Virus record (IMG/VR): IMGVR_UViG_3300029486_000002 | Coordinates: 8,787 to 72,786 of that record | Origin: a virus | Length of the DNA stretch: 64,000 nucleotides | Reading direction: 5' to 3' (one strand) | Shown: positions 5,718 through 61,860 of the stretch, in pieces | Layout of the letters: every line of letters starts with the position of its first letter | Numbering within the stretch: position 1 is the stretch's first letter | Translations under genes and position numbers: made by a program | Notes under the pieces: model-generated | What the model was told of the DNA's origin: nothing | Seen by the model: only the letters and a program-made list of their open reading frames with translations | Databases searched by the model: none

Positions 5718-6584
5718 ATGGAAAGACTTAGAGAAGTGCTTGCCTTTGTAAACCACAAAGGCGGTGTAGGAAAAACAACAACGGTGCAGAGTTTAGCGAC
5801 CGGATTGCGCCGTTTTGGTAAAGGAAAATTCGGAGTGGATGCCGATGGACGCAAACGCTTGCCGCGTATGCTCATTATCGACCTTGATCCGCAGGCGTGT
5901 GCCTCGTTCCTCTTCGGATGGAGCGAGACTCAGAACGCAGGTAAGCCTACCGTTTACGACGCATTGGTACAGCAAAGCAATTTGCCCGTTTATCAGGTAC
6001 GTGAGGGAATTTACCTCGCGCCAGCTGCGTCGCAGCTTATATCCATAGAACCGTTTCTGAATCAGCGGGCATTGCCTCGCAAAGCCCTTTGTAAATTGCT
6101 CGCCAAGCCACTGAACGAGTTAGCAGGCACCGAACTGGCAGACGGAGGCGTGAACACCGTTATGGATGCTTTCGACTACGTGCTTATAGACTGCCCACCG
6201 GCTATGTCGTTGCTTACATACAATGCTCTCACAGCCGCTACGAGTGTAGTGCTGCCCGTGCAGCTCGAAGTGTTGGCAACAAAAGGTATTGCCGAAATCA
6301 TCAACGCCATCGAGGAAACACGTGAGGATCTTAATCCCGATCTTGACATTCGTGGCTTGCTGATGGTAATGAGCAACGACCAGACCAACGCCACAAAGGA
6401 GTTTAAGGCATATCTCGGCGAAAAGTATCAGGACTATATGTTTGACGCTTATACGCGCCGCGACACGAAGATGGTCGAAGCGCAAGCTATGCGAGAAGAC
6501 ATCTTTGCTTATGCACCGTATTGCAGGGTAGGGCAGGACTATGAGCGTTTTACCAAGGAGATAATCAACAGTTTCACTTTTTAA
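5718..6584 (+). CDS. parA: ParA/Soj-family partition ATPase
   Basis: Deviant Walker A NHKGGVGKTTT; LIIDLDPQA; VLIDCPP; 288 aa. Confidence 0.85.
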   Translation: MERLREVLAFVNHKGGVGKTTTVQSLATGLRRFGKGKFGVDADGRKRLPRMLIIDLDPQACASFLFGWSETQNAGKPTVYDALVQQSNLPVYQVREGIYLAPAASQLISIEPFLNQRALPRKALCKLLAKPLNELAGTELADGGVNTVMDAFDYVLIDCPPAMSLLTYNALTAATSVVLPVQLEVLATKGIAEIINAIEETREDLNPDLDIRGLLMVMSNDQTNATKEFKAYLGEKYQDYMFDAYTRRDTKMVEAQAMREDIFAYAPYCRVGQDYERFTKEIINSFTF

Positions 6585-7541: not shown

Positions 7542-9134
7542 ATGGCAAAGAAAGCGAAAAAAGAAGACAATGAAGGCAAACTTCAACATGCCTTGAACGA
7601 ATTGCGCTGGATAAACACACCTGTCAACTATACATCATACGCTAAAAGCTATTCTCTCATACAACAGGACGTTATGCTGTTGGTAAGCGGACGACTGCAA
7701 GACCATTTTGCCAAGTTTCTTAACGAACATCGTTATTTAAGCAAGGAACGACCCAATGGAGGTATAACGAAAGAAGACCTGTTGAAGATGGGACCGATAC
7801 GTTTGCGCCTGGCTGACTTCGGTATAGACAGCAGCCATTATGACGAGTCGGTAAAGGTGATAAACCAAATGAAGAAGATAGAGTTTCATTTACCGCGTTT
7901 CGATCCAGAGACAGGACTTAGAAAAGGTGAGGACTATATGCCTATATTCAGCAAGATATTTATCCCGAAGAACTTCACATCACGAGAAGGAGAAGATTTC
8001 AACAATTCGGGAGACGGAGAAACAAAGATAGACGAGGACGGACAGGAAGTGCGCAAGTTCCGTCGTGACGGATATATCGAGGTTACAATAAACATTGAGG
8101 TGGCAAAAGCCGTGTTTGATATGGCAGACGGATATTTCAATCATCTTGAACGTATCGCCTATTTCTGCAATTCGGCTTACACGTCACGTCTTTATCTTCT
8201 GTTGATGAAGTACGCGAGCAGGGGGCAGATGCACCCTGCTATAGATTATCGTGAGCTGAAGGAAGCATTGGGTATGTTTAAGGTCGATGTGGAAAAAAGT
8301 GAACAACCCGCAAAGGTTGTCACTACTGAGAAATATCAAAAGTTCTCACAGTTCCGCAAACAGGTGTTGGACGTGGCACGTGGTGACATGGAGCGACTGT
8401 GCGAGGAAAACAAGATAGAGATAATGCTATCGTGCATTGACCCCGACAAAAAAGGCTATGAACCTATTTATAGGGGTAGCGCCAAACGAGGCAATCCTGA
8501 AAAAATCAAGTTTCATATTAAGCGCACACCGTTGGGCTTGGCGAGAGAATTGGAGTTGCATCGTGGTTCGTCAGAAAAACGTTTGTGCGCCAAGTTAATG
8601 TCATTATATCCTACGCTCGACGAAGAACGGCTCAAGGCGTTTGTTGCTGACGTTCCCGAAGACCTTTGGAACGACTTTAAGGCGTATGCCTATAATGGAG
8701 TGCCGAAAGCGGTAGAGCAACCGCATAGATGGAATGGCACGGTGGAGGATTTCGTGTTTTACATTATGGAGCAATGGATAAAACAGCATAGTGTGAAGCA
8801 TGAAGCCCAGCAGCAGACGTTTGCGTTTGTCAAAGCGGAGGAAGTGAAGCCGAAACCGGGCGAAAGAGAATGGCAGCAGCTTGTGGCTATGCTTGACGGC
8901 GAAACAGGCGAGTGGCTGGGTAGTGAGATGTCGGACTTGTTGAAAAAAGTGACGCTTGATGATTATGACGGCAAGACTGTCCGGATTATTGCGACTCAGA
9001 AACAGGTGGCAGACATGGAGAATCTGCTGGGTAATAATGTACTAAAAAATAAATTCAGCCAATTACTTGGTCATTGTTTTAAAGGTGACAAACGTAAAAA
9101 GGTTCGTTTGGATTATAATAAAATAAAAAAATAG
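7542..9134 (+). CDS. putative replication initiator (Rep) protein (530 aa)
   Basis: Sits immediately downstream of iterons, an AT-rich region and inverted iterons, the standard order for iteron-plasmid rep genes; I recognise no named motif, so the assignment is by context. Confidence 0.55.
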   Translation: MAKKAKKEDNEGKLQHALNELRWINTPVNYTSYAKSYSLIQQDVMLLVSGRLQDHFAKFLNEHRYLSKERPNGGITKEDLLKMGPIRLRLADFGIDSSHYDESVKVINQMKKIEFHLPRFDPETGLRKGEDYMPIFSKIFIPKNFTSREGEDFNNSGDGETKIDEDGQEVRKFRRDGYIEVTINIEVAKAVFDMADGYFNHLERIAYFCNSAYTSRLYLLLMKYASRGQMHPAIDYRELKEALGMFKVDVEKSEQPAKVVTTEKYQKFSQFRKQVLDVARGDMERLCEENKIEIMLSCIDPDKKGYEPIYRGSAKRGNPEKIKFHIKRTPLGLARELELHRGSSEKRLCAKLMSLYPTLDEERLKAFVADVPEDLWNDFKAYAYNGVPKAVEQPHRWNGTVEDFVFYIMEQWIKQHSVKHEAQQQTFAFVKAEEVKPKPGEREWQQLVAMLDGETGEWLGSEMSDLLKKVTLDDYDGKTVRIIATQKQVADMENLLGNNVLKNKFSQLLGHCFKGDKRKKVRLDYNKIKK

Positions 9135-44166: not shown

Positions 44167-44240
44167 AGCGGAGTGGTAGCAGTTGGTAGCTCACTTGGTT
44201 CATACCCAAGAGGTCGAAGGTTCGAGCCCTTCCTCCGCAA
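44167..44240 (+). tRNA. tRNA-Met (anticodon CAT; could alternatively be a lysidine-modified Ile2)
   Basis: Anticodon arm CTTGG-TTCATAC-CCAAG; T arm GAAGG-TTCGAGC-CCTTC; acceptor 6 bp + A1.A72 mismatch; 74 nt; D-arm pairing is weak. Confidence 0.7.
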
Positions 44241-44301
44241 CATGGTCAGTCGGTAACAAGATTGATTTTTCAGGATAACAACACAAAACACATTTTTACT
44301 A

Positions 44302-51394: not shown

Positions 51395-51898
51395 ATGAAT
51401 TACAAACAGATGATTGAACAGGCTCGTGCCAATGGTATGGCTACCGAGAAGAAGATGTGGGCAGCAGTAGAAACTCTCTCTACCGATCTCCTTGCGCTGG
51501 AGCAGACCGACCCCAAACTCTATTGGCACATATTGCGCCGTCAGCACGCCGTTCTCTATGGACGACACTATTCTGAGAAGATGGCCAACCACGATGTTAA
51601 TGCTCTTGTCTATAGCGGCATGTACGACGAGGAGGGTACGCCAACCGGCGGAGGTGCACATTGGACTCGTATCAAGGTAGACGAGCTGACTAAGGGCATG
51701 AAGTTTCACTCAAATGTCAACGCATGGGACAAATACGTCGCCTTCAATTCGATGTACGCCGACCTCTGCGCTTGCATGAACGAAGAGGAGATAATCAAAG
51801 CCGCCTACGCTTTCTACTTTTGTGATGACGACTGGCAGCCCTGCGAAGATGACTGCACTAAGGTGTGGGACTATAATGCCCTACACGCCACCCTCTAA
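51395..51898 (+). CDS. hypothetical protein (167 aa)
   Basis: ORF track. Confidence 0.45.
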   Translation: MNYKQMIEQARANGMATEKKMWAAVETLSTDLLALEQTDPKLYWHILRRQHAVLYGRHYSEKMANHDVNALVYSGMYDEEGTPTGGGAHWTRIKVDELTKGMKFHSNVNAWDKYVAFNSMYADLCACMNEEEIIKAAYAFYFCDDDWQPCEDDCTKVWDYNALHATL

Positions 51899-52060
51899 TT
51901 TTTTGAATTTTTACATTTGTATTCTTCAAAGCCACTTTGCGCTAATTACACAATTCGCAGAGTGGCTTCATTTGTATCTTCTCCTTATACGCCCCCCCAC
52001 CATGTCCGCCCCACCAAATTAAAAACTCCTACATTTGCCTATGAAAGAAACCCGAAAATT

Positions 52061-53134
52061 ATGACACAACGAAACATCAACCTAACACTGCCCCGATCAT
52101 GGAACGAGTGCAGCACCGAGCAGTTGGAGCTCATCTCCCGGATAATGCTTGAACAGATAGAGCGAGCCGACCGTTATCATCCCTTCGACATGCGCAACGT
52201 CAAGATAGCGTGCTTCTTTGTTCTTGCAGGTATAGAGATAGTGGAAGGCATAGACGAGTCGAAGCCTCTTGAGAAGCAACACTACACTTGCCGACTCTCC
52301 ACCCCAAGCCGACGCAACCGTTTCTTCTGTCGCAAACAGCAGGAGGAAGAAACCTTCCCCATCTACTTATGGCAGTTCAACTATTGGCTAACGCCTAAGC
52401 CGAAGACCGACGACCGCAACTCGGCTGAGTATCTTGTCTCCGGTGCCGGATTGCTCGACTGGCTCGACAACGAGCGTGGAGCTCACCTCTCTCGCTTCCC
52501 CTACCCTACCCTTCGCCTACGCAACAAACGTGGTCTGCTACATCGCAAGACCGACTATGAAGGTCCGGTGCAGGATATGGACGGCTTTTCATGGCAGCAG
52601 TATCGTTTTGCCTCCGATCTCATGGGACAATACACCTCGCTCGCCAACAACCTTGTCAAGATGAAGCAGTTGGGCAAGTTCACGGCCGAGCAGATAGCAC
52701 AGCAAGCCGACAGCGTAGACCGGGCACGTTCCATGTTCCTCGCCACTATCTTCAACCGTCGTATCAACTTCATTGACACCAACACCAACCTCAAGGTGCA
52801 TGATTTCCACTACGACGTGCGCCAATTCGACACCCAAGCCCCACTCTTCCGTCACTTCCCCGATTACCAATGGCAACCTATCCTCTTCTGGTGGACCGGC
52901 ATGATGCACGCCCTCTCACGGCGTTATCCCCATGTGTTCAAGGTGCAGAAGCTTGATCCTCGCAAGCGGCCGTCAACGCCCTTGGAGATATACACCGCCA
53001 CCATCGCCACCATGCAGAAATACGCCTCGCTCACCGAAGATCAGGTGAACAATCAGTCGTATTCGCTTGTTCTGGAACATCTGGAGCGACTGAGCAAGGA
53101 GAATGAGGAAATGGAAAAGATTAGGAAGACGTAG
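52061..53134 (+). CDS. hypothetical protein (357 aa from the internal ATG)
   Basis: Track ORF 51917; the start is placed at MTQRNINL because an A-rich leader precedes it. Confidence 0.45.
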   Translation: MTQRNINLTLPRSWNECSTEQLELISRIMLEQIERADRYHPFDMRNVKIACFFVLAGIEIVEGIDESKPLEKQHYTCRLSTPSRRNRFFCRKQQEEETFPIYLWQFNYWLTPKPKTDDRNSAEYLVSGAGLLDWLDNERGAHLSRFPYPTLRLRNKRGLLHRKTDYEGPVQDMDGFSWQQYRFASDLMGQYTSLANNLVKMKQLGKFTAEQIAQQADSVDRARSMFLATIFNRRINFIDTNTNLKVHDFHYDVRQFDTQAPLFRHFPDYQWQPILFWWTGMMHALSRRYPHVFKVQKLDPRKRPSTPLEIYTATIATMQKYASLTEDQVNNQSYSLVLEHLERLSKENEEMEKIRKT

Positions 53135-56375: not shown

Positions 56376-56852
56376 ATGGTAGAGCGTCGTATAGGATGGA
56401 GGGTTGACGTACTTCGTTGTTGTAATAACTGGGAAGATATTGTTTCTACTGACCGTAAAGTGCTTTCCAACTTTTGCGACCCGAAGAAATTTCATTTTCC
56501 AAAAAAGTGGCGCATTGACCCCCGTGTTTTTGACCCGAGATGGGATCTATCCCATGAATATTATGTCGTGAGGAAGAAAAACAATCGGTATAAGGTTGTT
56601 CTGAATAAACCCAAAAGACCTTCCGCCGGAAGAACCTTGGTGGTAGATACAAAGAGAGGCTATATCCGTGAGATTGGCGACAAGGTGTGGTATCATCCAG
56701 ATTATATGGATTTCGACTGTCAGACTTGTGCTGATTTCGGAACCTGTATGACGGGGTCTTACGACAAGAGTTTTTGTGGGGTGGCTGCAAAGTGTGGACT
56801 CGGTCACGGTAACACATGGCAGGAAGTAATAGAAAACAATGATCAACATTAA
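56376..56852 (+). CDS. hypothetical Cys-containing protein (158 aa)
   Basis: ORF track. Confidence 0.45.
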   Translation: MVERRIGWRVDVLRCCNNWEDIVSTDRKVLSNFCDPKKFHFPKKWRIDPRVFDPRWDLSHEYYVVRKKNNRYKVVLNKPKRPSAGRTLVVDTKRGYIREIGDKVWYHPDYMDFDCQTCADFGTCMTGSYDKSFCGVAAKCGLGHGNTWQEVIENNDQH

Positions 56853-57093
56853 GATTTCGGTACATCCGGTTAGCCATCGGCTCGAATGGCGAGGATGGGG
56901 GGGGTAATTTCTCGCCCGCCCTTCGAGCCACCGACTACAAATGCCCACATTGCATAATGATTGAATATGACTAAGAAGCATCCATTCGACGATTTTCATC
57001 AGCGCATCCATTGGAACGGAACCTGTATCGGAACCATAACTCAACAATGGGGTAATCCTGCACCTCGTCACGGATGGAGATTAATTATTGAAT

Positions 57094-57411
57094 ATGACTG
57101 ACCCTCACTACAAGCGCGGCACTATCAGCAAGGACGGCAAGCTGTATGGCCGCTATCCCGACGGCTCGCTCTACCGCATCTACTCTACCACCGACCGACC
57201 GTTCCTTCAGTTGGTGGACCGAGAGGGCGAGACGTTCCTTCGCATACGCCAAGCCACCGAGCTGGGCTATACCGACTGTCCCTGCCCAGGATCTGCCGAC
57301 CTAAGTTATCCGTCCTCGGCTCTGAGGCGCAGTCGCACAGTCGGGGAGGGTAAGCTCGTAAACGCACTGACCGCTGTAAGTGGCGGAATCTGCGTGTTTG
57401 TTGAATTATAA
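57094..57411 (+). CDS. array member (106 aa, MTDPHY..., ends ...ICVFVEL)
   Basis: Track ORF 57088 (TTG); the ATG at 57094 lies inside the junction ATTGAATATGACTGAC. Confidence 0.4.
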   Translation: MTDPHYKRGTISKDGKLYGRYPDGSLYRIYSTTDRPFLQLVDREGETFLRIRQATELGYTDCPCPGSADLSYPSSALRRSRTVGEGKLVNALTAVSGGICVFVEL

Positions 57412-57430
57412 ATTAAAGGAGAAATGAATT

Positions 57431-57724
57431 ATGAGTTACAATACAACGAAGATAACCGTATTTAACGACGAAAAGGAAAAGGATGAAGACGTAAAACTCT
57501 TCTACTCTACCATTACCGACAATGTAGGCATCACCTGTGGAGAGCAAGATGTATTTCTTACCCAAGACCAATTCAAGGCTTTGGCTTATCTTATGAGGAG
57601 ATGTTTCTATACAAGAGACATGTTGGATAAAATGCAGGTAGCTATCGATCGTTGCAAGTGTCCTTATAACGTCTTTTCTTCTCACTACGAAAATACTTGG
57701 AAATTAGAGGTTGAGAAGGACTGA
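57431..57724 (+). CDS. array member (97 aa, Cys-containing)
   Basis: ORF track. Confidence 0.4.
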   Translation: MSYNTTKITVFNDEKEKDEDVKLFYSTITDNVGITCGEQDVFLTQDQFKALAYLMRRCFYTRDMLDKMQVAIDRCKCPYNVFSSHYENTWKLEVEKD

Positions 57725-57725
57725 T

Positions 57726-57857
57726 ATGACTAATATTGACTTTTATCAATATCCTCGTGGCAATAACGATGGAGGCAAATTAGGCACAGACGTTTGTCCT
57801 ACCGTAACAATCAATTCGTGGCCGCAAAATGTATTTCTGATTGAAGAATATGAATGA
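57726..57857 (+). CDS. array member (43 aa, MTNIDF..., ends LIEEYE)
   Basis: Hand translation; its stop overlaps the next ATG (GAATATGAATGA). Confidence 0.3.
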   Translation: MTNIDFYQYPRGNNDGGKLGTDVCPTVTINSWPQNVFLIEEYE

Positions 57858-58002
57858 AATAAAGATAGACTTCCACGTCCCTTCCGTAGCAGGAATCTAC
57901 TGGAATGCGTCGCCCGATTTCCAAAGGCCGCCGTTGGGAGGATTAAGCCGATGTATCAGGACTGATAATCATGCTCCAGGAATTTTAATAGAATACAAAT
58001 AA
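57850..58002 (+). CDS. array member (50 aa, MNEIKIDF..., ends GILIEYK)
   Basis: Hand translation. Confidence 0.3.
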   Translation: MNEIKIDFHVPSVAGIYWNASPDFQRPPLGGLSRCIRTDNHAPGILIEYK

Positions 58003-58052
58003 CATCAACCCCTTATACAAAACAACAATATAATCATGGATAAAAAGAAAAT

Positions 58053-58571
58053 GTGACAAACGGAAACAGTGTTTGGGAAGACTTCAAACATTGGCACAAA
58101 GGATTCAGTCGCTCTAAGGCTGCAAAATATAGAGGAAAGGATCGAGAATTTCTTGAGATTTTACGAAAGGAGTTAAGTATTATAAACAATAAAATTATGA
58201 GGAAAAACGATCGATTGCCTAACGTGATATTCATGTCACCGAAGGCTTCTGAGTTGATAGAAAGTCTGACAACAGAAGATGAAGTTTTGTTTGAGACCGA
58301 AGCAAATGGTATAAGCGTCAAAAATGCGTCCTTGTCTGATTCCGACATGGACAAAACATCCGAATATCGCAACATTGTTCAACTGTGGCATCCTGCCAGA
58401 GAGAAACCACATTGCATAGGATCGCTTCTCTGTTGGCGACTCGGTGGTACATTCTTCGTGCATGAACATTACGATCATAACGAACAGAATTGGCGAATGT
58501 TTATCAGCGAATACGAAGTGCAGCGTTATTGTTATATTGGCAACTTGGAACCGATTTATCCTTTTGATTGA
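58053..58571 (+). CDS. array member (172 aa, GTG start, MTNGNS...)
   Basis: ORF track; ends ...IYPFD with TGA 5 nt before the next ATGACTAAC. Confidence 0.4.
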   Translation: MTNGNSVWEDFKHWHKGFSRSKAAKYRGKDREFLEILRKELSIINNKIMRKNDRLPNVIFMSPKASELIESLTTEDEVLFETEANGISVKNASLSDSDMDKTSEYRNIVQLWHPAREKPHCIGSLLCWRLGGTFFVHEHYDHNEQNWRMFISEYEVQRYCYIGNLEPIYPFD

Positions 58572-58576
58572 GGAAT

Positions 58577-58717
58577 ATGACTAACATCAAACCCTTAAAT
58601 GTCTGTATAGGAGGAATAGCAGTAACACTGAATACCCGATACGAGCAACTTTGCATTGAGCATCTGATGTCACTCGCCCACTTTCCGAGGACAGGCGTAA
58701 TGATTGAATACAAATAA
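58577..58717 (+). CDS. array member (46 aa, MTNIKPLNVCIGG..., ends GVMIEYK)
   Basis: Hand translation. Confidence 0.3.
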   Translation: MTNIKPLNVCIGGIAVTLNTRYEQLCIEHLMSLAHFPRTGVMIEYK

Positions 58718-58727
58718 CAGCAACAAT

Positions 58728-60047
58728 ATGATCACAAAACTCAATTTCACCGACCGCACCATCAAGAGCTATGCCATCCGCAAGCTCACACCCAAGGAGT
58801 GTTTTCGTCTGATGGGCGTTCGTGACAATGTAATCGGCACTATGCAGAGCAGTAATGCTCAAGCAGCCGAACGACTGCCCGACTGGAAGGGCAAGGGTAA
58901 ACCCGAAGACATGGCTATATCTGCCTCACAGCAGTACAAGCAAGCCGGAAACAGCATCGTGGTGGACGTGTTGGCTCACATCTACGAGCAACTTTTCTTC
59001 CCCGCACCACCCAAGCCACGCCCAGGCGAGCAACTCACTCTCTTCGACGACCCCGAAGACTCCCTGCCCTCCCTTCCTACCACCGCAACCGACAAGAACG
59101 AGGAGAAGATATTCCTCACCACGTTCTCCGGCTACGACTCGCAGCTTATGGCAGCTGATGTGCTACGGGAGTGGCATCCCGACTTCCGATGGAAGTGCGT
59201 AGGATGGAGCGACATCGACAAATACGCCTGTCAGATGCACAACCTCGTCTTTCCTCAGTTTGCCGACTGCGCCTTGGGCGACATCACCAAGATTGACTGG
59301 CACGAAGTAAAACGCTCACTCGAAGGTTGCGAAGTGGATCTCTTCACCTATTCCTCGCCCTGTCAGGACATCAGTCAGGCTGGCAAGCAGATGGGCTTGC
59401 AGGAGGGCAGCGACACCCGAAGCGCACTGCTTTGGCGAGTGGCGGATGCCGTGGAGGTGCTTCGCCCGAAGTATCTCTTGCAGGAGAACGTGGCGGCACT
59501 GGTAAGTCTGAAGTTCATGCCCGACTTCCAGAAGTGGCTCGACAAACTTTCGTCGCTCGGCTATGTGAGCCGTTGGGCGCGACTCAACGCAAAGAACTAT
59601 GGTGTGCCACAAAACCGCGATCGTGTGTTCTGTATTTCCATGCGCCGTGACGTAGCCTTCGACTATCAGTTCCCCGAACCCTTCGAGCTGAAAACTCGAC
59701 TGGAAGACGTGCTCGAAGAGGAAGTGGCCGACCGCTATTTCCTCAAGGACGATGCCGTGAGCAAGCTCCTCAAGGCAAACGACTCTGACAACGCCCTATT
59801 TCTTCAGTTTGATCTGCCACCAACACACGAGGCGGCAATGTTCTTGAAAACGTGGCTTACGTTGTGGATGCAAGCAACCGATGGTTGGAAAATGAAACCT
59901 ATAAGTCTTCATCTCGCCCTTTATTCGGCAAAGCAGAAAATGGAGCTGTCTTATTCCGTGTTCACGGATAAGGGAGTGGTTGCATTATGCGATGAGTTTC
60001 AACGGCTGTTCAAGGAGAATATGGAGAGAAAACATCATGCGAACTGA
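58728..60047 (+). CDS. DNA (cytosine-5)-methyltransferase with circularly permuted motif order (IX/X first, then I, IV, VI, VIII)
   Basis: N-terminal RKLTPKECFRLMGV and QAGNSIVVDVL (motif X); then TFSGYDS (I), SSPCQDIS (IV), ENVAALV (VI), GVPQNRDRVF (VIII); no motif X at the C-terminus. Confidence 0.8.
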   Translation: MITKLNFTDRTIKSYAIRKLTPKECFRLMGVRDNVIGTMQSSNAQAAERLPDWKGKGKPEDMAISASQQYKQAGNSIVVDVLAHIYEQLFFPAPPKPRPGEQLTLFDDPEDSLPSLPTTATDKNEEKIFLTTFSGYDSQLMAADVLREWHPDFRWKCVGWSDIDKYACQMHNLVFPQFADCALGDITKIDWHEVKRSLEGCEVDLFTYSSPCQDISQAGKQMGLQEGSDTRSALLWRVADAVEVLRPKYLLQENVAALVSLKFMPDFQKWLDKLSSLGYVSRWARLNAKNYGVPQNRDRVFCISMRRDVAFDYQFPEPFELKTRLEDVLEEEVADRYFLKDDAVSKLLKANDSDNALFLQFDLPPTHEAAMFLKTWLTLWMQATDGWKMKPISLHLALYSAKQKMELSYSVFTDKGVVALCDEFQRLFKENMERKHHAN

Positions 60048-60228
60048 TAATCCACCAGAGAGGGTAGTCCGCATTATTGCCGACCTAATCGGGGGTGGCA
60101 GACTGTTGACACATCAATCCTCAATGTTCAGTGCCGAGCGGTTCGGCGGCGTGTATCATAACATAGCCATCACAATTATGGCAAGGACAGATTGCAGTGA
60201 CGTTTTCTTTATAGCAGTAGAATTATGA
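60037..60228 (+). CDS. array member (63 aa, MRTDNPP..., ends ...FFIAVEL); start overlaps the MTase stop
   Basis: Internal ATG of track ORF 59980. Confidence 0.35.
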   Translation: MRTDNPPERVVRIIADLIGGGRLLTHQSSMFSAERFGGVYHNIAITIMARTDCSDVFFIAVEL

Positions 60229-60553
60229 ATCAATATCCAAACATCAATTCGGGGAGGCAAATCGGATGTATCTGCGAAGGTCGCTTGATTCCGTCAACAC
60301 CAGGATGGCACGATATATGCCCTTCGCATCTATTCGCCTCGTGGTTGTAGTCCTTGTATTCCGTCAAGGGCTGAAGACGCAACGATTTGCCCAAAAATAG
60401 TAATAGAACTATGAACAATCCTCATCCCATCGTCCTCGGCTCCTACAGTCCCTCGCAGAACGGCATCATTGTGTCACCACACGGCATAGCCCTGTGTATT
60501 GCTGGGGGGAGGTAAGGGGCACGACGTGGATAAACCGAAAATATTGATAGAGT

Positions 60554-60736
60554 ATGATTGACTTTTCCGTCCTCGTCCACTACCGCACCGAGGAAGCAAA
60601 AGCCTTCCGCCGTGAGCATGGCGACCGGGGAGGGTGTAAATACGGCGATAAGTATCACCGCCCCAGTCCGTGGCCGTGGTGCAATTCGATAACAACAGTA
60701 ACAAAAGACAACCTATTATGCGTAACATTTATCTGA
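60554..60736 (+). CDS. array member (60 aa, MIDFSVL...)
   Basis: ORF track; the ATG lies in the junction TATGATTGA. Confidence 0.35.
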   Translation: MIDFSVLVHYRTEEAKAFRREHGDRGGCKYGDKYHRPSPWPWCNSITTVTKDNLLCVTFI

Positions 60737-60894
60737 TACACGAAGCCCGAACCGAACACGCAAAGGCCGTGCGTCGCAGAACCGGCACTAACGATTTTCG
60801 CGATAAGGAATGGAATCTGCGGTCAGGACACCTGATGCAATGTATAGGTACGTTTCTCACTACAGACAATCTGATTGCAATATGCTACGAATAA
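60718..60894 (+). CDS. array member (58 aa, MRNIYLIHEAR..., ends IAICYE)
   Basis: Internal ATG of track ORF 60670. Confidence 0.35.
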   Translation: MRNIYLIHEARTEHAKAVRRRTGTNDFRDKEWNLRSGHLMQCIGTFLTTDNLIAICYE

Positions 60895-61034
60895 GAATAG
60901 CAGCCTTCCGAGGTCGCCCGTTGAATGGTTATGGTTACTCCAACATTCAGCGAATGGAGATAAACGTTGGAGGTACAACCAACACCCTCACCTCAGTAGG
61001 CAAAGACAATATGGTATTGATAACGTATGATTAA
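60882..61034 (+). CDS. array member (50 aa, MLRIRIAAF..., ends VLITYD)
   Basis: Internal ATG of track ORF 60810. Confidence 0.35.
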   Translation: MLRIRIAAFRGRPLNGYGYSNIQRMEINVGGTTNTLTSVGKDNMVLITYD

Positions 61035-61307
61035 CCAAATTCCTTTTGTGCAACGCACATCGCAGCTCTGTCCACGTCGGGGGGTACTCCACCGCACTGT
61101 CCGCACGCTACGACGGATGGGCAGGACTCTACGACGAGCACGGACAGCACACCATTGTATTGATAGAATATGATTAGATTGCAAATCTTAAATTCTCCCT
61201 CCACCAAGTATGCGCCACCATTCTTACGCATTACCACAAGGAGGGAGCAGGTAATATCATACAAGGTACAAGTTCGCTCGTCAAAGCACCAGCTGTATTG
61301 ATAGAAT

Positions 61308-61490
61308 ATGAATAACAGAAAAAGTAAAATCCGTATGGTATGGCGTGACGACGACTCTATCCGCTTTTACCAAGACACTCCCGACAAGCGAGGGGTGAGC
61401 GAGTTGATGATAAACAATATGTGGGGGGGTAGCCTATACGATAATATCGGGAAATGTGGCAAACGTCCTCATTCCACTATAAGAGTATGA
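61308..61490 (+). CDS. array member (60 aa, MNNRKSKIRMVW...)
   Basis: ORF track. Confidence 0.35.
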   Translation: MNNRKSKIRMVWRDDDSIRFYQDTPDKRGVSELMINNMWGGSLYDNIGKCGKRPHSTIRV

Positions 61491-61672
61491 ATATGACTGA
61501 CAAGTATTACATCGGATGGGTACGCAGCGGCAAGGACGGCAAGGGTCTCGTAAAGAGCCGACCGCGCAAACGGATAGCCAATACCGTGACAACATCGCCA
61601 CCAGGCTGCTTTGCCGACCCTCGCGACGGGCTGGGCAACACCACACCGCATATAGTATATGAGTATGAGTAA
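61487..61672 (+). CDS. array member (61 aa, MNMTDKYYIGW..., ends HIVYEYE)
   Basis: Internal ATG of track ORF 61454. Confidence 0.35.
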   Translation: MNMTDKYYIGWVRSGKDGKGLVKSRPRKRIANTVTTSPPGCFADPRDGLGNTTPHIVYEYE

Positions 61673-61692
61673 CCAATAAAAACCAATAGACA

Positions 61693-61860
61693 ATGAAAAC
61701 TGACACCACACGCACCCTCGTAGTTGGCATAATGCAGACACCACCCTACACTCATATGTTCGAGAGTGCACGTCGTGTATATTCTGCCAAAGGTTTAAGT
61801 CCGGCTTGTCTCACACACGGTGGGGGTAATCAAGAGATTAAGGTGTTGGTGGAGCTGTAA
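61693..61860 (+). CDS. array member (55 aa, MKTDTTRT..., ends ...IKVLVEL)
   Basis: Hand translation, 56 codons. Confidence 0.3.
   Translation: MKTDTTRTLVVGIMQTPPYTHMFESARRVYSAKGLSPACLTHGGGNQEIKVLVEL

Follow-up and report, generated by a model that had tools for sequence, protein, structure and literature searches.

An array of predicted target-recognition minigenes flanking a circularly permuted C5 cytosine methyltransferase core in a gut phage

Genes of the array

We analysed a 64,000-nt stretch of viral DNA (IMG/VR record IMGVR_UViG_3300029486_000002, positions 8,787 to 72,786; hereafter the window) and describe an array of small genes at its positions 56839 to 61860. About 17 mini-ORFs (open reading frames) of 43-105 aa, typically ~45 aa, flank the gene for a C5 cytosine DNA methyltransferase that has no target-recognition domain (TRD) of its own, and each mini-ORF appears to hold a single TRD. 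All + strand reading frames of the region were listed and read directly (Table 1). The mini-ORFs, which we call cassettes, share one layout, a recognition loop of the type x-T-(L/V/I)-T, more broadly x-(T/S/C)-(L/V/I)-(T/S)..., followed by a terminal beta-strand ...hhEY(D/E) or ...VxVEL, with conserved ends and a variable middle. A previous description of this DNA, made from its letters alone (the sequence-only reading), had dealt with the small ORFs and their boundaries; it mentioned neither the 439-aa methyltransferase gene that the array flanks nor the frame changes in mid-cassette.

For comparison we used 80 related phage loci on contigs of 33-110 kb, whose methylases are 70-99% identical to that of the window and whose source names suggest Caudoviricetes associated with Prevotella. 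Among GenBank phages, neither blastn with the 5.7-kb region nor tblastn with two of its cassettes returned a match; a scan of a genome collection returned solely phage contigs binned into metagenome-assembled genomes, and no isolate host. The region is best explained as one operon of a Prevotella-type gut phage.

Table 1. Features of the array in the window (all on the + strand; peptide ends are given up to the stop codon)
Feature	Coordinates	Length	Peptide end or landmark
c1, frame-broken TRD minigene	56839..56974		...CPHCIMIEYD (TAA 56972-74)
c2, intact TRD minigene	56967..57101	44 aa	...RLIIEYD
c3, intact long TRD minigene	57094..57411	105 aa	...GGICVFVEL
non-TRD ORF	57431..57724	97 aa	nested in array; in ~21/80 relatives
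c5, intact TRD minigene	57726..57857	43 aa	...CPTVTINSWPQNVFLIEEYE
c6, intact TRD minigene	57850..58002	50 aa	...GLSRCIRTDNHAPGILIEYK
non-TRD ORF, GTG start	58053..58571	172 aa	ends inside fossil junction
junction copy	58564..58585		nucleotides retained though preceding ORF reads another frame; frame 0 spells LLIEEYD
c8, intact TRD minigene	58577..58717	46 aa	...GIAVTLNT...GVMIEYK
C5 cytosine DNA methyltransferase core	58728..60047	439 aa	circularly permuted, TRD-less
c10, intact TRD minigene	60037..60228	63 aa	...ITIMARTDCSDVFFIAVEL; start overlaps methylase stop
c10b, frame-broken TRD minigene	60225..60414		head MNQYPNINSGRQIGCICEG..., tail in other frame ...YALRIYSPRGCSPCIPSRAEDATICPKIVIEL
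c11, frame-broken TRD minigene	60411..60561		repaired peptide ...SPHGIALCIAGGGKGHDVDKPKILIEYD
c12, intact TRD minigene	60554..60736	60 aa	...CNSITTVTKDNLLCVTFI
c13, TRD minigene	60718..60894	58 aa	...CIGTFLTTDNLIAICYE
c14, intact TRD minigene	60882..61034	50 aa	...TNTLTSVGKDNMVLITYD
c15, frame-broken TRD minigene	61027..61177		break by G6 at 61079-61084
c16, frame-broken TRD minigene	61170..61315		tail ...VCATILTHYHKEGAGNIIQG...AVLIEYE
c17, ORF of uncertain TRD status	61308..61490	60 aa	degenerate junction end ...STIRV; ATGA overlap with c18
c18, intact TRD minigene	61487..61672		(MN)MTDKYY...IANTVTTSPPG...TTPHIVYEYE
c19, last TRD minigene	61693..61860	55 aa	...RVYSAKGLSPACLTHGGGNQEIKVLVEL; array end

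The core matches PF00145 (E 1.7e-50) in two separate stretches: residues 155-351 correspond to PF00145 positions 22-216, and the N-terminal stretch comprises motifs IX-X. The conserved C5 methyltransferase motifs I, IV, VI, VIII, IX and X are all present, in the order IX-X (RKLTPKEC, GNSIVV) and then I-VIII (FSGYDS, SPCQDIS, ENV, QNRDRVF); with motifs IX-X at the N-terminus and I-VIII after them, the core is circularly permuted. The TRD that sits between motifs VIII and IX of the same polypeptide is absent. Indeed, the N-terminus of the core (MITKLNFTDRTIKSYAIRKLTP) is directly the hairpin preceding motif IX and carries no covalent TRD, the upstream cassette c8 ends in a TAA 10 nt before the core ATG and in a different frame, and downstream of motif VIII there is only a ~75-aa helical tail, common to all relatives. 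Correspondingly, PF00145 positions ~217-290 are uncovered in the native core and become covered only with a mini-ORF artificially spliced in. The core is found in 80/80 relatives and is conserved in thousands of sequences, and almost all of the homologues listed are 435-440 aa long. In the AlphaFold (AF2) model of a natural variant (P0146, diverse alignment) residues 20-340 of the core reach a predicted local distance difference test score (pLDDT) >90; compared with M.MpeI and M.HhaI, this modelled core matches over only ~215-270 columns, the large domain.

This variant also shows that covalent linkage of TRD and core is optional in nature. P0146 (9 member sequences) carries a TRD homologous to c18 fused in frame at the C-terminus of the core, three further variants (P0251, P0261 and P0302) have TRDs fused at its N-terminus, and P0271 and P0328 are TRD-less, as are the window and most relatives, in which no fused TRD was found. 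In a lineage whose methylase is 48% identical (L083), mini-ORFs ending in ...LLIEYE likewise lie upstream.

Compared singly with Pfam, the mini-ORFs gave no match, the peptides being too short and too divergent. When a cassette is spliced between the motif VIII region and motifs IX-X of the core, however, the PF00145 match becomes continuous (23-322 of 324) and gains 2-9 bits (c5: 181 bits; c19: 184 bits). A chimera of core (I-VIII), cassette and (IX-X) aligns to M.HhaI straight through its TRD ('vlGsysps.qngiivsphGIAlciaGGGkg' versus 'rLGivgkgGqgeriystrGIAitlsayGGGif'), and c11 aligns to the M.HhaI TRD. Further matches come from Dulem virus 40 (PP511379), a lemur-gut phage with a methylase in two parts, XCD03592 (alpha, 258 aa, motifs I-VIII) and XCD03591 (beta, 373 aa, six in-frame TRDs and then IX-X). 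Here c16, c19/c11, c14/c12, c3, c5 and c6 each match a different TRD (E 3e-8 to 5e-4): residues 11-40 are matched by c16 (E 6.6e-5), 66-91 by c19 (E 5e-4), 94-136 by c14 (E 1.6e-4), 139-156 by c3 (E 1.4e-4), 164-196 by c5 (E 3e-8) and 199-225 by c6 (E 2e-7), while c12 matches the segment 'NCVTTVQKDSML'. In phrog_8411, c3 falls at positions 109-161, just before the part matched by motif IX of the core. Taken together, the chimera, Dulem virus 40 and PHROG matches mark the cassettes as divergent members of one module type, and at the level of homology they show the mini-ORFs to be TRDs of C5 cytosine methyltransferases.

The sequence-only reading had taken the ORF bodies to be unrelated and had noted many Cys pairs in the proteins, which it saw as candidate small anti-defence or host-takeover effectors. 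The first point does not hold for these divergent homologous modules, and Cys pairs are not common to the family. That the mini-ORFs encode effectors with no relation to the methylase would suit proteins that are small, variable and phage-encoded, some of them with Cys pairs; their specific homology to methyltransferase TRDs and their constant linkage to a TRD-less C5 core leave this idea with hardly any credibility. Rather than free-standing effectors, the peptides look like the missing specificity modules of the adjacent methylase, and the anti-defence role would survive only in the sense of anti-restriction methylation.

Some observations on the methylase genes stand apart from this argument. 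The tail of the core (residues ~365-439) has conserved ends (FDLPPTHEAAMFLKTWL ... FKENMERK) and a variable middle, of which at least 4 versions occur among the relatives; it might be a docking or regulatory element. In one relative with a 97% identical methylase (L003), the long methylase ORF begins only at 6145, which implies that motif X is separated from motif I by a stop or a frameshift (region ~6001-6145); the core itself may be split or inactivated there. In L083 (Logan SRR30574127), positions 681-2654 are called as a 623-aa methylase, P0271, with a long acidic insert between motifs IX and X; at 1030-1209 another frame inside this insert encodes a TRD-like ORF ending in ...LMLIEY, and the gene call may run through a cassette. 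The methylase of Dulem virus 40 (L081 3974-5914) is annotated just as two methylases and is likely an undescribed multispecific enzyme.

Three other ORFs accompany the cassettes, and none of them has a match in Pfam or PHROG. A 158-aa Cys-rich ORF (56376-56852; ...DCQTCADFGTCMTGSYDKSFCGVAAKCG...), present in 10/80 relatives, precedes the array and overlaps the first cassette by ATGA. The 97-aa ORF is nested in the array. Apart from the window, just 1-2 relatives have the 172-aa ORF; it ends in a junction copy that spells LLIEEYD and a stop in another frame, and thus looks like a recent insertion into a cassette.

Junctions between the minigenes

A reused stop-start junction of ~20 nt had been the central observation of the sequence-only reading, and it is found again here: a repeat search groups ~10 copies between 56.8 and 61.9 kb (56954, 57081, 57977, 58564, 58697, 60541, 61013, 61156, 61294 and 61480), all of them direct and on the + strand. 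Allowing <=3 mismatches, the 20-mer ATTGATAGAATATGAYTAAC is matched 5 times, in every case within the region and on the + strand (56956, 60543, 61016, 61159 and 61297), and 0 times in 100 dinucleotide-preserving shuffles. Two junctions had been called identical at 61158 and 61297; the identity is real, being an exact 17-mer (GTATTGATAGAATATGA) with two occurrences, and the coordinates shift by 1-2 nt to 61157 and 61295. Both described classes of C-termini are present as well. In the window the main class reads ...(L/I/M)IEY(D/E/K), slightly wider than the (L/I)IEY(D/K/E) given before, and the VxVEL class ends at 57411, 60228 and 61860, with a fourth copy (KIVIEL) at 60414. Over the junctions of the relatives the commonest C-termini are LIEYD, LIEYE, MIEYD, VFVEL and VAVEL.

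The consensus of the Y-type junctions is nTA-TTG-ATA-GAA-TAT-GAn-TAA (n=497). A junction such as ATTGATAGAATATGAnTAA combines stops in all three frames (TGA-TAG, ATGA, TAA) with the next ATG in an A/T-rich context: frame a reads L-I-E-Y-(D/E)-stop, frame b is closed by the TGA of ATGA, and frame c runs into TGA-TAG, one codon and then the ATG of the next cassette. Stops in two frames had been proposed; the stops are there, and what changes is their number, with three frames closed in most junctions. To judge how much of this follows from the encoded peptide, we kept the peptide of each of the 698 array junctions of the 80 loci and redrew its synonymous codons 200 times according to the codon usage of the respective phage. 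Three-frame stops occur in 64% of the junctions (34% in the null), an overlapping ATG in 80% (48%) and the strict combination of three-frame stops plus ATG in 55% (23%), each above the maximum of the 200 redraws, in counts that are not phylogenetically independent and whose statistics are inflated by the shared ancestry of the loci. The nucleotide conservation beyond what the peptide requires, which the sequence-only reading had claimed, is thus accounted for by the positions that create the start and the extra-frame stops.

The stop/start overlaps follow two patterns: in Y-type junctions the ATG lies 5 nt before the stop (ATGAnTAA) in 400/519 cases (77%), and in EL-type junctions 1 nt before it (ATGA) in 66/131. 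An upstream stop that overlaps or abuts the next start is a feature of termination-reinitiation operons, and it fits the translational coupling suggested earlier. No + strand terminator was found within the array; we use only this part of the corresponding analysis, and its sigma-70 promoter scan, uninformative for a Bacteroidota-type host, was set aside. We read the junction as a termination-reinitiation coupler that would also limit frameshifted translation. An explanation by an RNA element was dropped, as an Rfam scan of the region gave one sub-threshold chance hit.

Alternatively, ribosomes could frameshift or hop at each junction and produce a long multi-TRD polyprotein, in the manner of the Bacillus-phage methylases or of the beta subunit of Dulem virus 40. 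Homologous TRDs do stand in frame in Dulem virus 40 and in P0251, and the frame shift at Y-type junctions is constantly +1. However, TGA-TAG lies in the target frame immediately upstream of the ATG, TAT-GAn-TAA offers no slippery re-pairing site, and EL-type junctions would require a different shift. In addition, at least 10 serial recoding events would leave a negligible yield, and the downstream TRDs have no motif IX-X to join. We therefore consider such recoding very improbable and return to the coupler as the preferred account of the junction.

Selection, frame breaks and cassette exchange

The cassettes of the 80 relatives cluster into 123 DNA families, and within families most copies are intact from junction ATG to junction stop. 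The ratio of non-synonymous to synonymous substitution rates (dN/dS) is 0.07-0.23 in nine families and 0.40-0.41 in two more. The family of c11 is the most widespread (61 loci, 52 intact, dN/dS 0.07); all copies are intact in the families of c2 (family 9, 16/16, dN/dS 0.08) and c6 (family 6, 18/18), 19/23 in that of c8 (family 3), which lies downstream of the methylase in the relative L060, and 8/10 of the relatives' copies in that of c10b (family 21). The family of c10 (family 2) counts 18 intact copies and 12 broken ones, mostly at a G5 tract, and the family of c13 (family 7) occurs in 18 loci. A search among 5.8 billion proteins with the commonest cassette returned homologues that are stand-alone proteins of 33-83 aa in 122/122 cases, all named 'hypothetical'. 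The minigenes are hence under purifying selection as short ORFs.

Nevertheless, c1, c10b, c11, c15 and c16 of the window's ~17 cassettes are frame-broken, and c17 is doubtful, which makes six if it is counted. Taken alone, these breaks would suit an array that is the functionless wreck of a once-continuous multi-TRD methylase gene. Against such decay, most copies per family are intact in the relatives, selection is strongly purifying (neutral dN/dS was tested for and not found), and the placement of starts and stops, far from random, is regular and conserved in thousands of metagenomic sequences; we attach next to no weight to it.

The breaks are concentrated in homopolymers. Of the five runs of G>=6 in the 64-kb window four lie inside the 5-kb array (G8 at 56897, G6 at 60504, G6 at 61079 and G7 at 61423); the first three are the frame breaks of c1, c11 and c15, and the fourth lies inside c17. 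The ATG of c1 (56839) forms an ATGA with the stop codon of the preceding ORF, and the G8 tract 56897-56904 is where its frame changes; relatives have G4-G8, and G7 would be in frame. The break of c11 is a G6 at 60504-60509, mostly G5 in relatives, and both ON and OFF alleles of this cassette recur in public data. For c15 the relatives show G5 (the majority, in frame), G7, G8 or G9; read out of frame, it ends at 61171-73, the TGA within the ATGA of the following junction, and an exact-sequence look-up of the OFF-state c15 peptide of the window returned no record. The break of c16 is a 1-nt deletion within a C-rich tract (~61196-61206), and its out-of-frame reading likewise stops in the next junction, at the TGA of TTGATAG. 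The G7 tract of c17 (61423-61429) varies from G6 to G9 in relatives, and the c3 family has a variable G8 tract there.

Taken together, the same tracts range from G4 to G9 in the relatives with conserved flanks, frame-breaking indels are, in seven families, almost confined to G or C tracts, and homopolymers in the flanking genes are invariant. In the public data for family 0, ON-allele clusters hold 114-261 sequences, and several OFF alleles, cut exactly after the tract, form clusters of 8-30. GGG makes up 15% of the Gly codons in intact cassettes, compared with 4% in long phage ORFs and 0/17 in the core. Assembly error is an unlikely cause of the breaks, given that the long ORFs of the window are intact, the flanking homopolymers invariant and the OFF alleles independently recurrent. 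The array thus shares two features with phase-variable genes, a frame-setting homopolymer in the coding sequence and an ON/OFF tract-length polymorphism, the latter observed between assemblies. Such variation agrees with individual TRDs being turned ON and OFF by mutation, at a rate and with a reversibility that we infer.

The array differs greatly between relatives, while the core is constant. Its 100-bp bins are common to 1-72 of the 80 loci, and arrays hold 1-17 cassettes (median 9), that of the window being the largest. Cassettes mostly keep a collinear order; a slot may be filled by alternative cassettes, a few inversions of order occur, and one cassette family is found on either side of the core. 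Among the homology breakpoints between the window and its relatives, 333/623 lie <=15 nt from a junction (null mean 68, maximum 94). Arrays are therefore mosaics in which cassettes are present, absent or replaced between a constant core and conserved junctions, as the sequence-only reading had expected from an alignment across related phages.

That reading had gone further and seen the junctions as recombination anchors. In its strong form, the junction would mainly be a ~20-nt homology patch for the exchange, duplication and deletion of cassettes by homologous recombination or single-strand annealing, with its translation features secondary. The mosaic arrays, the breakpoint counts, the few order changes with one cassette on the other side of the core, and the junction copy at 58564-58585, kept although the preceding ORF reads another frame, all agree with it; this copy also supplies the ATG of c8. 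However, the swapping of cassettes with breakpoints at junctions does not establish the junction as the recombination substrate, because selection for intact modules, acting against broken ones, gives the same pattern at module borders. Moreover, the conservation in excess of the peptide falls exactly on the positions that make the ATG and the extra-frame stops, direct repeats favour deletion over exchange within a genome, and the function of the ORFs would be left unexplained. The inverted repeats around cassettes that mark shufflons and invertons are absent, all junctions being direct, and a PHROG scan of neighbouring genes revealed no recombinase. We regard anchoring as the junction's main purpose as rather unlikely; a translational function accounts for the excess conservation no less well. 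The two are not exclusive, and anchoring probably contributes to array evolution.

Outside the array, the complete list of other long G/C homopolymers in the window comprises 26396 (G9), 17622 (C8), 27270 (C7), 27918 (C6) and 51992 (C7). The last lies in the overlap of a 66-aa ORF (51822-52022) with a 405-aa ORF in another frame (51917-53134, TTG start) and may mark another gene prone to frameshifting or phase variation. Just upstream of the head-maturation protease gene, at 44167-44241, lies a single gene for tRNA-Met (CAT).

A split methylase and its known counterparts

Considering all these data, we think it probable that array and core form a split, modular, multispecific anti-restriction C5 methylase, whose TRD peptides complement the core in trans and can be switched singly. 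A more detailed version, in which a TRD-less core is served in trans by a library of exchangeable ~45-aa TRD peptides in a Type I-like manner, each from its own poly-G-switchable minigene, with a combinatorial, heritable yet mutable set of up to ~17 methylation specificities per phage and >120 TRD types in the family, is offered more tentatively and falls somewhat short of probable. The whole array would be transcribed as a single mRNA. The junction would stop ribosomes in three frames and offer the next ATG within a few nt, so that termination and reinitiation yield separately translated TRD peptides and a frameshift in one cassette is largely kept from entering the next. A TRD peptide would then dock where the covalent TRD normally sits, between motifs VIII and IX, its conserved C-terminal strand probably pairing with the N-terminal hairpin of the core (MITKLNFTDRTIKSYAIRKL), and each core-TRD pair would methylate one target sequence. 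Jointly, the TRDs could pre-empt many Type II restriction systems of the host. Length changes of poly-G/C tracts inside cassettes would remove or restore single specificities, and whole cassettes would be gained, lost and exchanged between phages with breakpoints at the shared junctions.

Complementation in trans is supported by a core that lacks its own TRD and is nevertheless retained in thousands of sequences. The TRD peptides, constant at their ends and variable in between, have the form expected of interchangeable subunits that dock on one partner, and the optional covalent linkage, together with the tolerance of C5 methylases for splitting, points the same way.

The natural fusions admit a different reading, in which only a covalently fused TRD is active and the remaining cassettes form a silent archive, activated by in-frame fusion at the C-terminus (P0146) or the N-terminus (P0302) of the core. 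Archive-type cassette systems are known for antigenic variation, fusions occur at both ends of the core, and the core-adjacent cassettes overlap or abut these ends. On the other hand, cassettes distant from the core retain an ATG and a stop of their own with dN/dS of 0.07-0.2, which is unexpected of silent copies; fused variants are rare, and in the window and most relatives the methylase would be left with no specificity module. On balance we judge a silent archive improbable.

Several points weigh against the trans-acting split methylase that we prefer. To our knowledge, no C5 methylase offers a precedent for a free 45-aa peptide that completes the DNA-binding domain, and many TRDs competing for one core raise a stoichiometry problem. 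AlphaFold left the fused TRD of P0146 unplaced (pLDDT ~30, residues 440-491), and with a shallow alignment the core-TRD fusion was modelled at pLDDT 33. Besides the inflation of the junction statistics, the 'frame reset' by the junction is merely partial: of 62 frame-broken cassette copies 19 end inside the next junction, 3 read through and 40 end earlier, so that 65% stop prematurely, 40-190 nt before the next ATG. The G5-G6 tracts are short for classical phase variation, and tract polymorphism was seen between consensus assemblies, not within a clone; it could be ordinary pseudogenisation at the most indel-prone sites.

Should the TRD peptides indeed work in trans, the window would hold the first cytosine methylase known to have free specificity subunits, and one with the largest repertoire seen in a multispecific methylase, where the Bacillus-phage record is 3-4 active TRDs in one chain. 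An explanation would then be at hand for the way in which ~90-105-kb gut phages of an abundant family withstand the numerous restriction systems of their Prevotella-type hosts. As a natural experiment, the 80+ combinations of cassettes could serve to map TRD sequence to DNA target, and for engineering the system suggests a small set of exchangeable 45-aa modules that read DNA, for use in the programmable writing of 5-methylcytosine. The junction, a putative short three-frame terminator with restart in the absence of a Shine-Dalgarno sequence, is relevant to translation in Bacteroidota and to operon design. Finally, thousands of 'hypothetical' phage ORFs of 45-60 aa in public data can now be labelled.

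Searches of the full-text literature turned up no account of a C5 methylase whose TRDs are encoded by free-standing minigenes. The components (TRDs, permutation, splitting, coupling, tract switching) are known; their combination and the free ~45-aa specificity peptides appear undescribed. In its putative function the array resembles the multispecific C5 DNA methyltransferases of Bacillus phages (M.SPRI, M.Phi3TI, M.Rho11sI and M.H2I), reportedly studied in the Trautner laboratory. These enzymes have 3-4 active TRDs, contiguous in one polypeptide between motifs VIII and IX; the tandem TRDs of ~40-50 aa have a T-L type core and are each thought to recognise one target, inactive 'pseudo' TRDs occur, and the enzymes serve in anti-restriction. 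The window shares with the SPR and phi3T methylases the phage origin, several tandem TRD modules per catalytic framework (here ~17 cassettes for one core), the size and T-L type of the modules, the presence of inactive ones and, putatively, one target per module and the anti-restriction role. Unlike those enzymes, it encodes its TRDs not contiguously in one frame but as separate ORFs, with a stop at every boundary, up to 17 per genome and on both sides of a permuted core. Titles of work on the Bacillus-phage multispecific methylases are included in the reference list of PMC8936443. The tandem methylase genes of Bacillus phage BC-VP were considered as a permuted enzyme and rejected as adjacent ordinary genes.

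Dulem virus 40 is also a gut phage; it has homologous TRDs (to c3, c5, c6, c14, c16 and c19) and places catalysis and recognition on different polypeptides. Its TRDs, unlike those of the window, form one continuous reading frame together with motifs IX-X, its core is unpermuted, and it has neither stop/start junctions nor conserved ...IEYD ends. C5 methylases withstand being split around the variable region, in nature as well as artificially (PMC3404938, PMC5944983): in M.AquI the alpha subunit holds motifs I-VIII and half the variable region, beta the rest with IX-X, and in M.EcoHK31I beta supplies only motif IX (PMC3404938). In these enzymes an active methylase is assembled from separately translated polypeptides, which shows that non-covalent complementation works there; the architecture of the window, with separate ORFs under purifying selection, is compatible with it. 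They consist, however, of two fixed subunits with one specificity, whereas here the TRD alone (~45 aa) would be separate and drawn from a library, and unlike in M.AquI, motifs IX-X stay with the core, fused to I-VIII. The order IX-X-I-VIII with a new N-terminus in the variable region is that of the circularly permuted 'type H' C5 methylases such as M.BssHII, M.Alw26I, M2.Eco31I, M.Esp3I and M2.BsaI (PMC5944983). Type H enzymes, like the relatives P0251, P0261 and P0302, have a covalent TRD before motif IX, which is absent from the core of the window.

Further parallels are the specificity (S) subunits of Type I restriction-modification systems and the phase-variable methylases (phasevarions), in which Type III mod and Type I/IIG genes switch by homopolymers or simple sequence repeats (SSRs) (PMC11868660, PMC4889913). 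The likeness to Type I S subunits and phasevarions lies in a separate, exchangeable specificity module, recombination between conserved flanks and ON/OFF control by tract length. These are, however, bacterial adenine methylases with unrelated folds that rely on invertases with inverted repeats, or on SSRs within one gene, whereas the cytosine methylase of the window belongs to a phage, its junctions are direct repeats and each minigene has one tract. Coupling by overlapping stop and start codons (ATGA, TAATG) is frequent in bacterial and phage operons, and the array resembles these in its stop/start overlap, for which an upstream Shine-Dalgarno sequence is not needed; EcoKI hsdM/hsdS is one example of termination-reinitiation coupling (PMC3510504). 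What sets the array apart from such operons is a reused element of ~18 nt that closes three frames while encoding the conserved final strand of the peptide before it and the opening residues of the one that follows.

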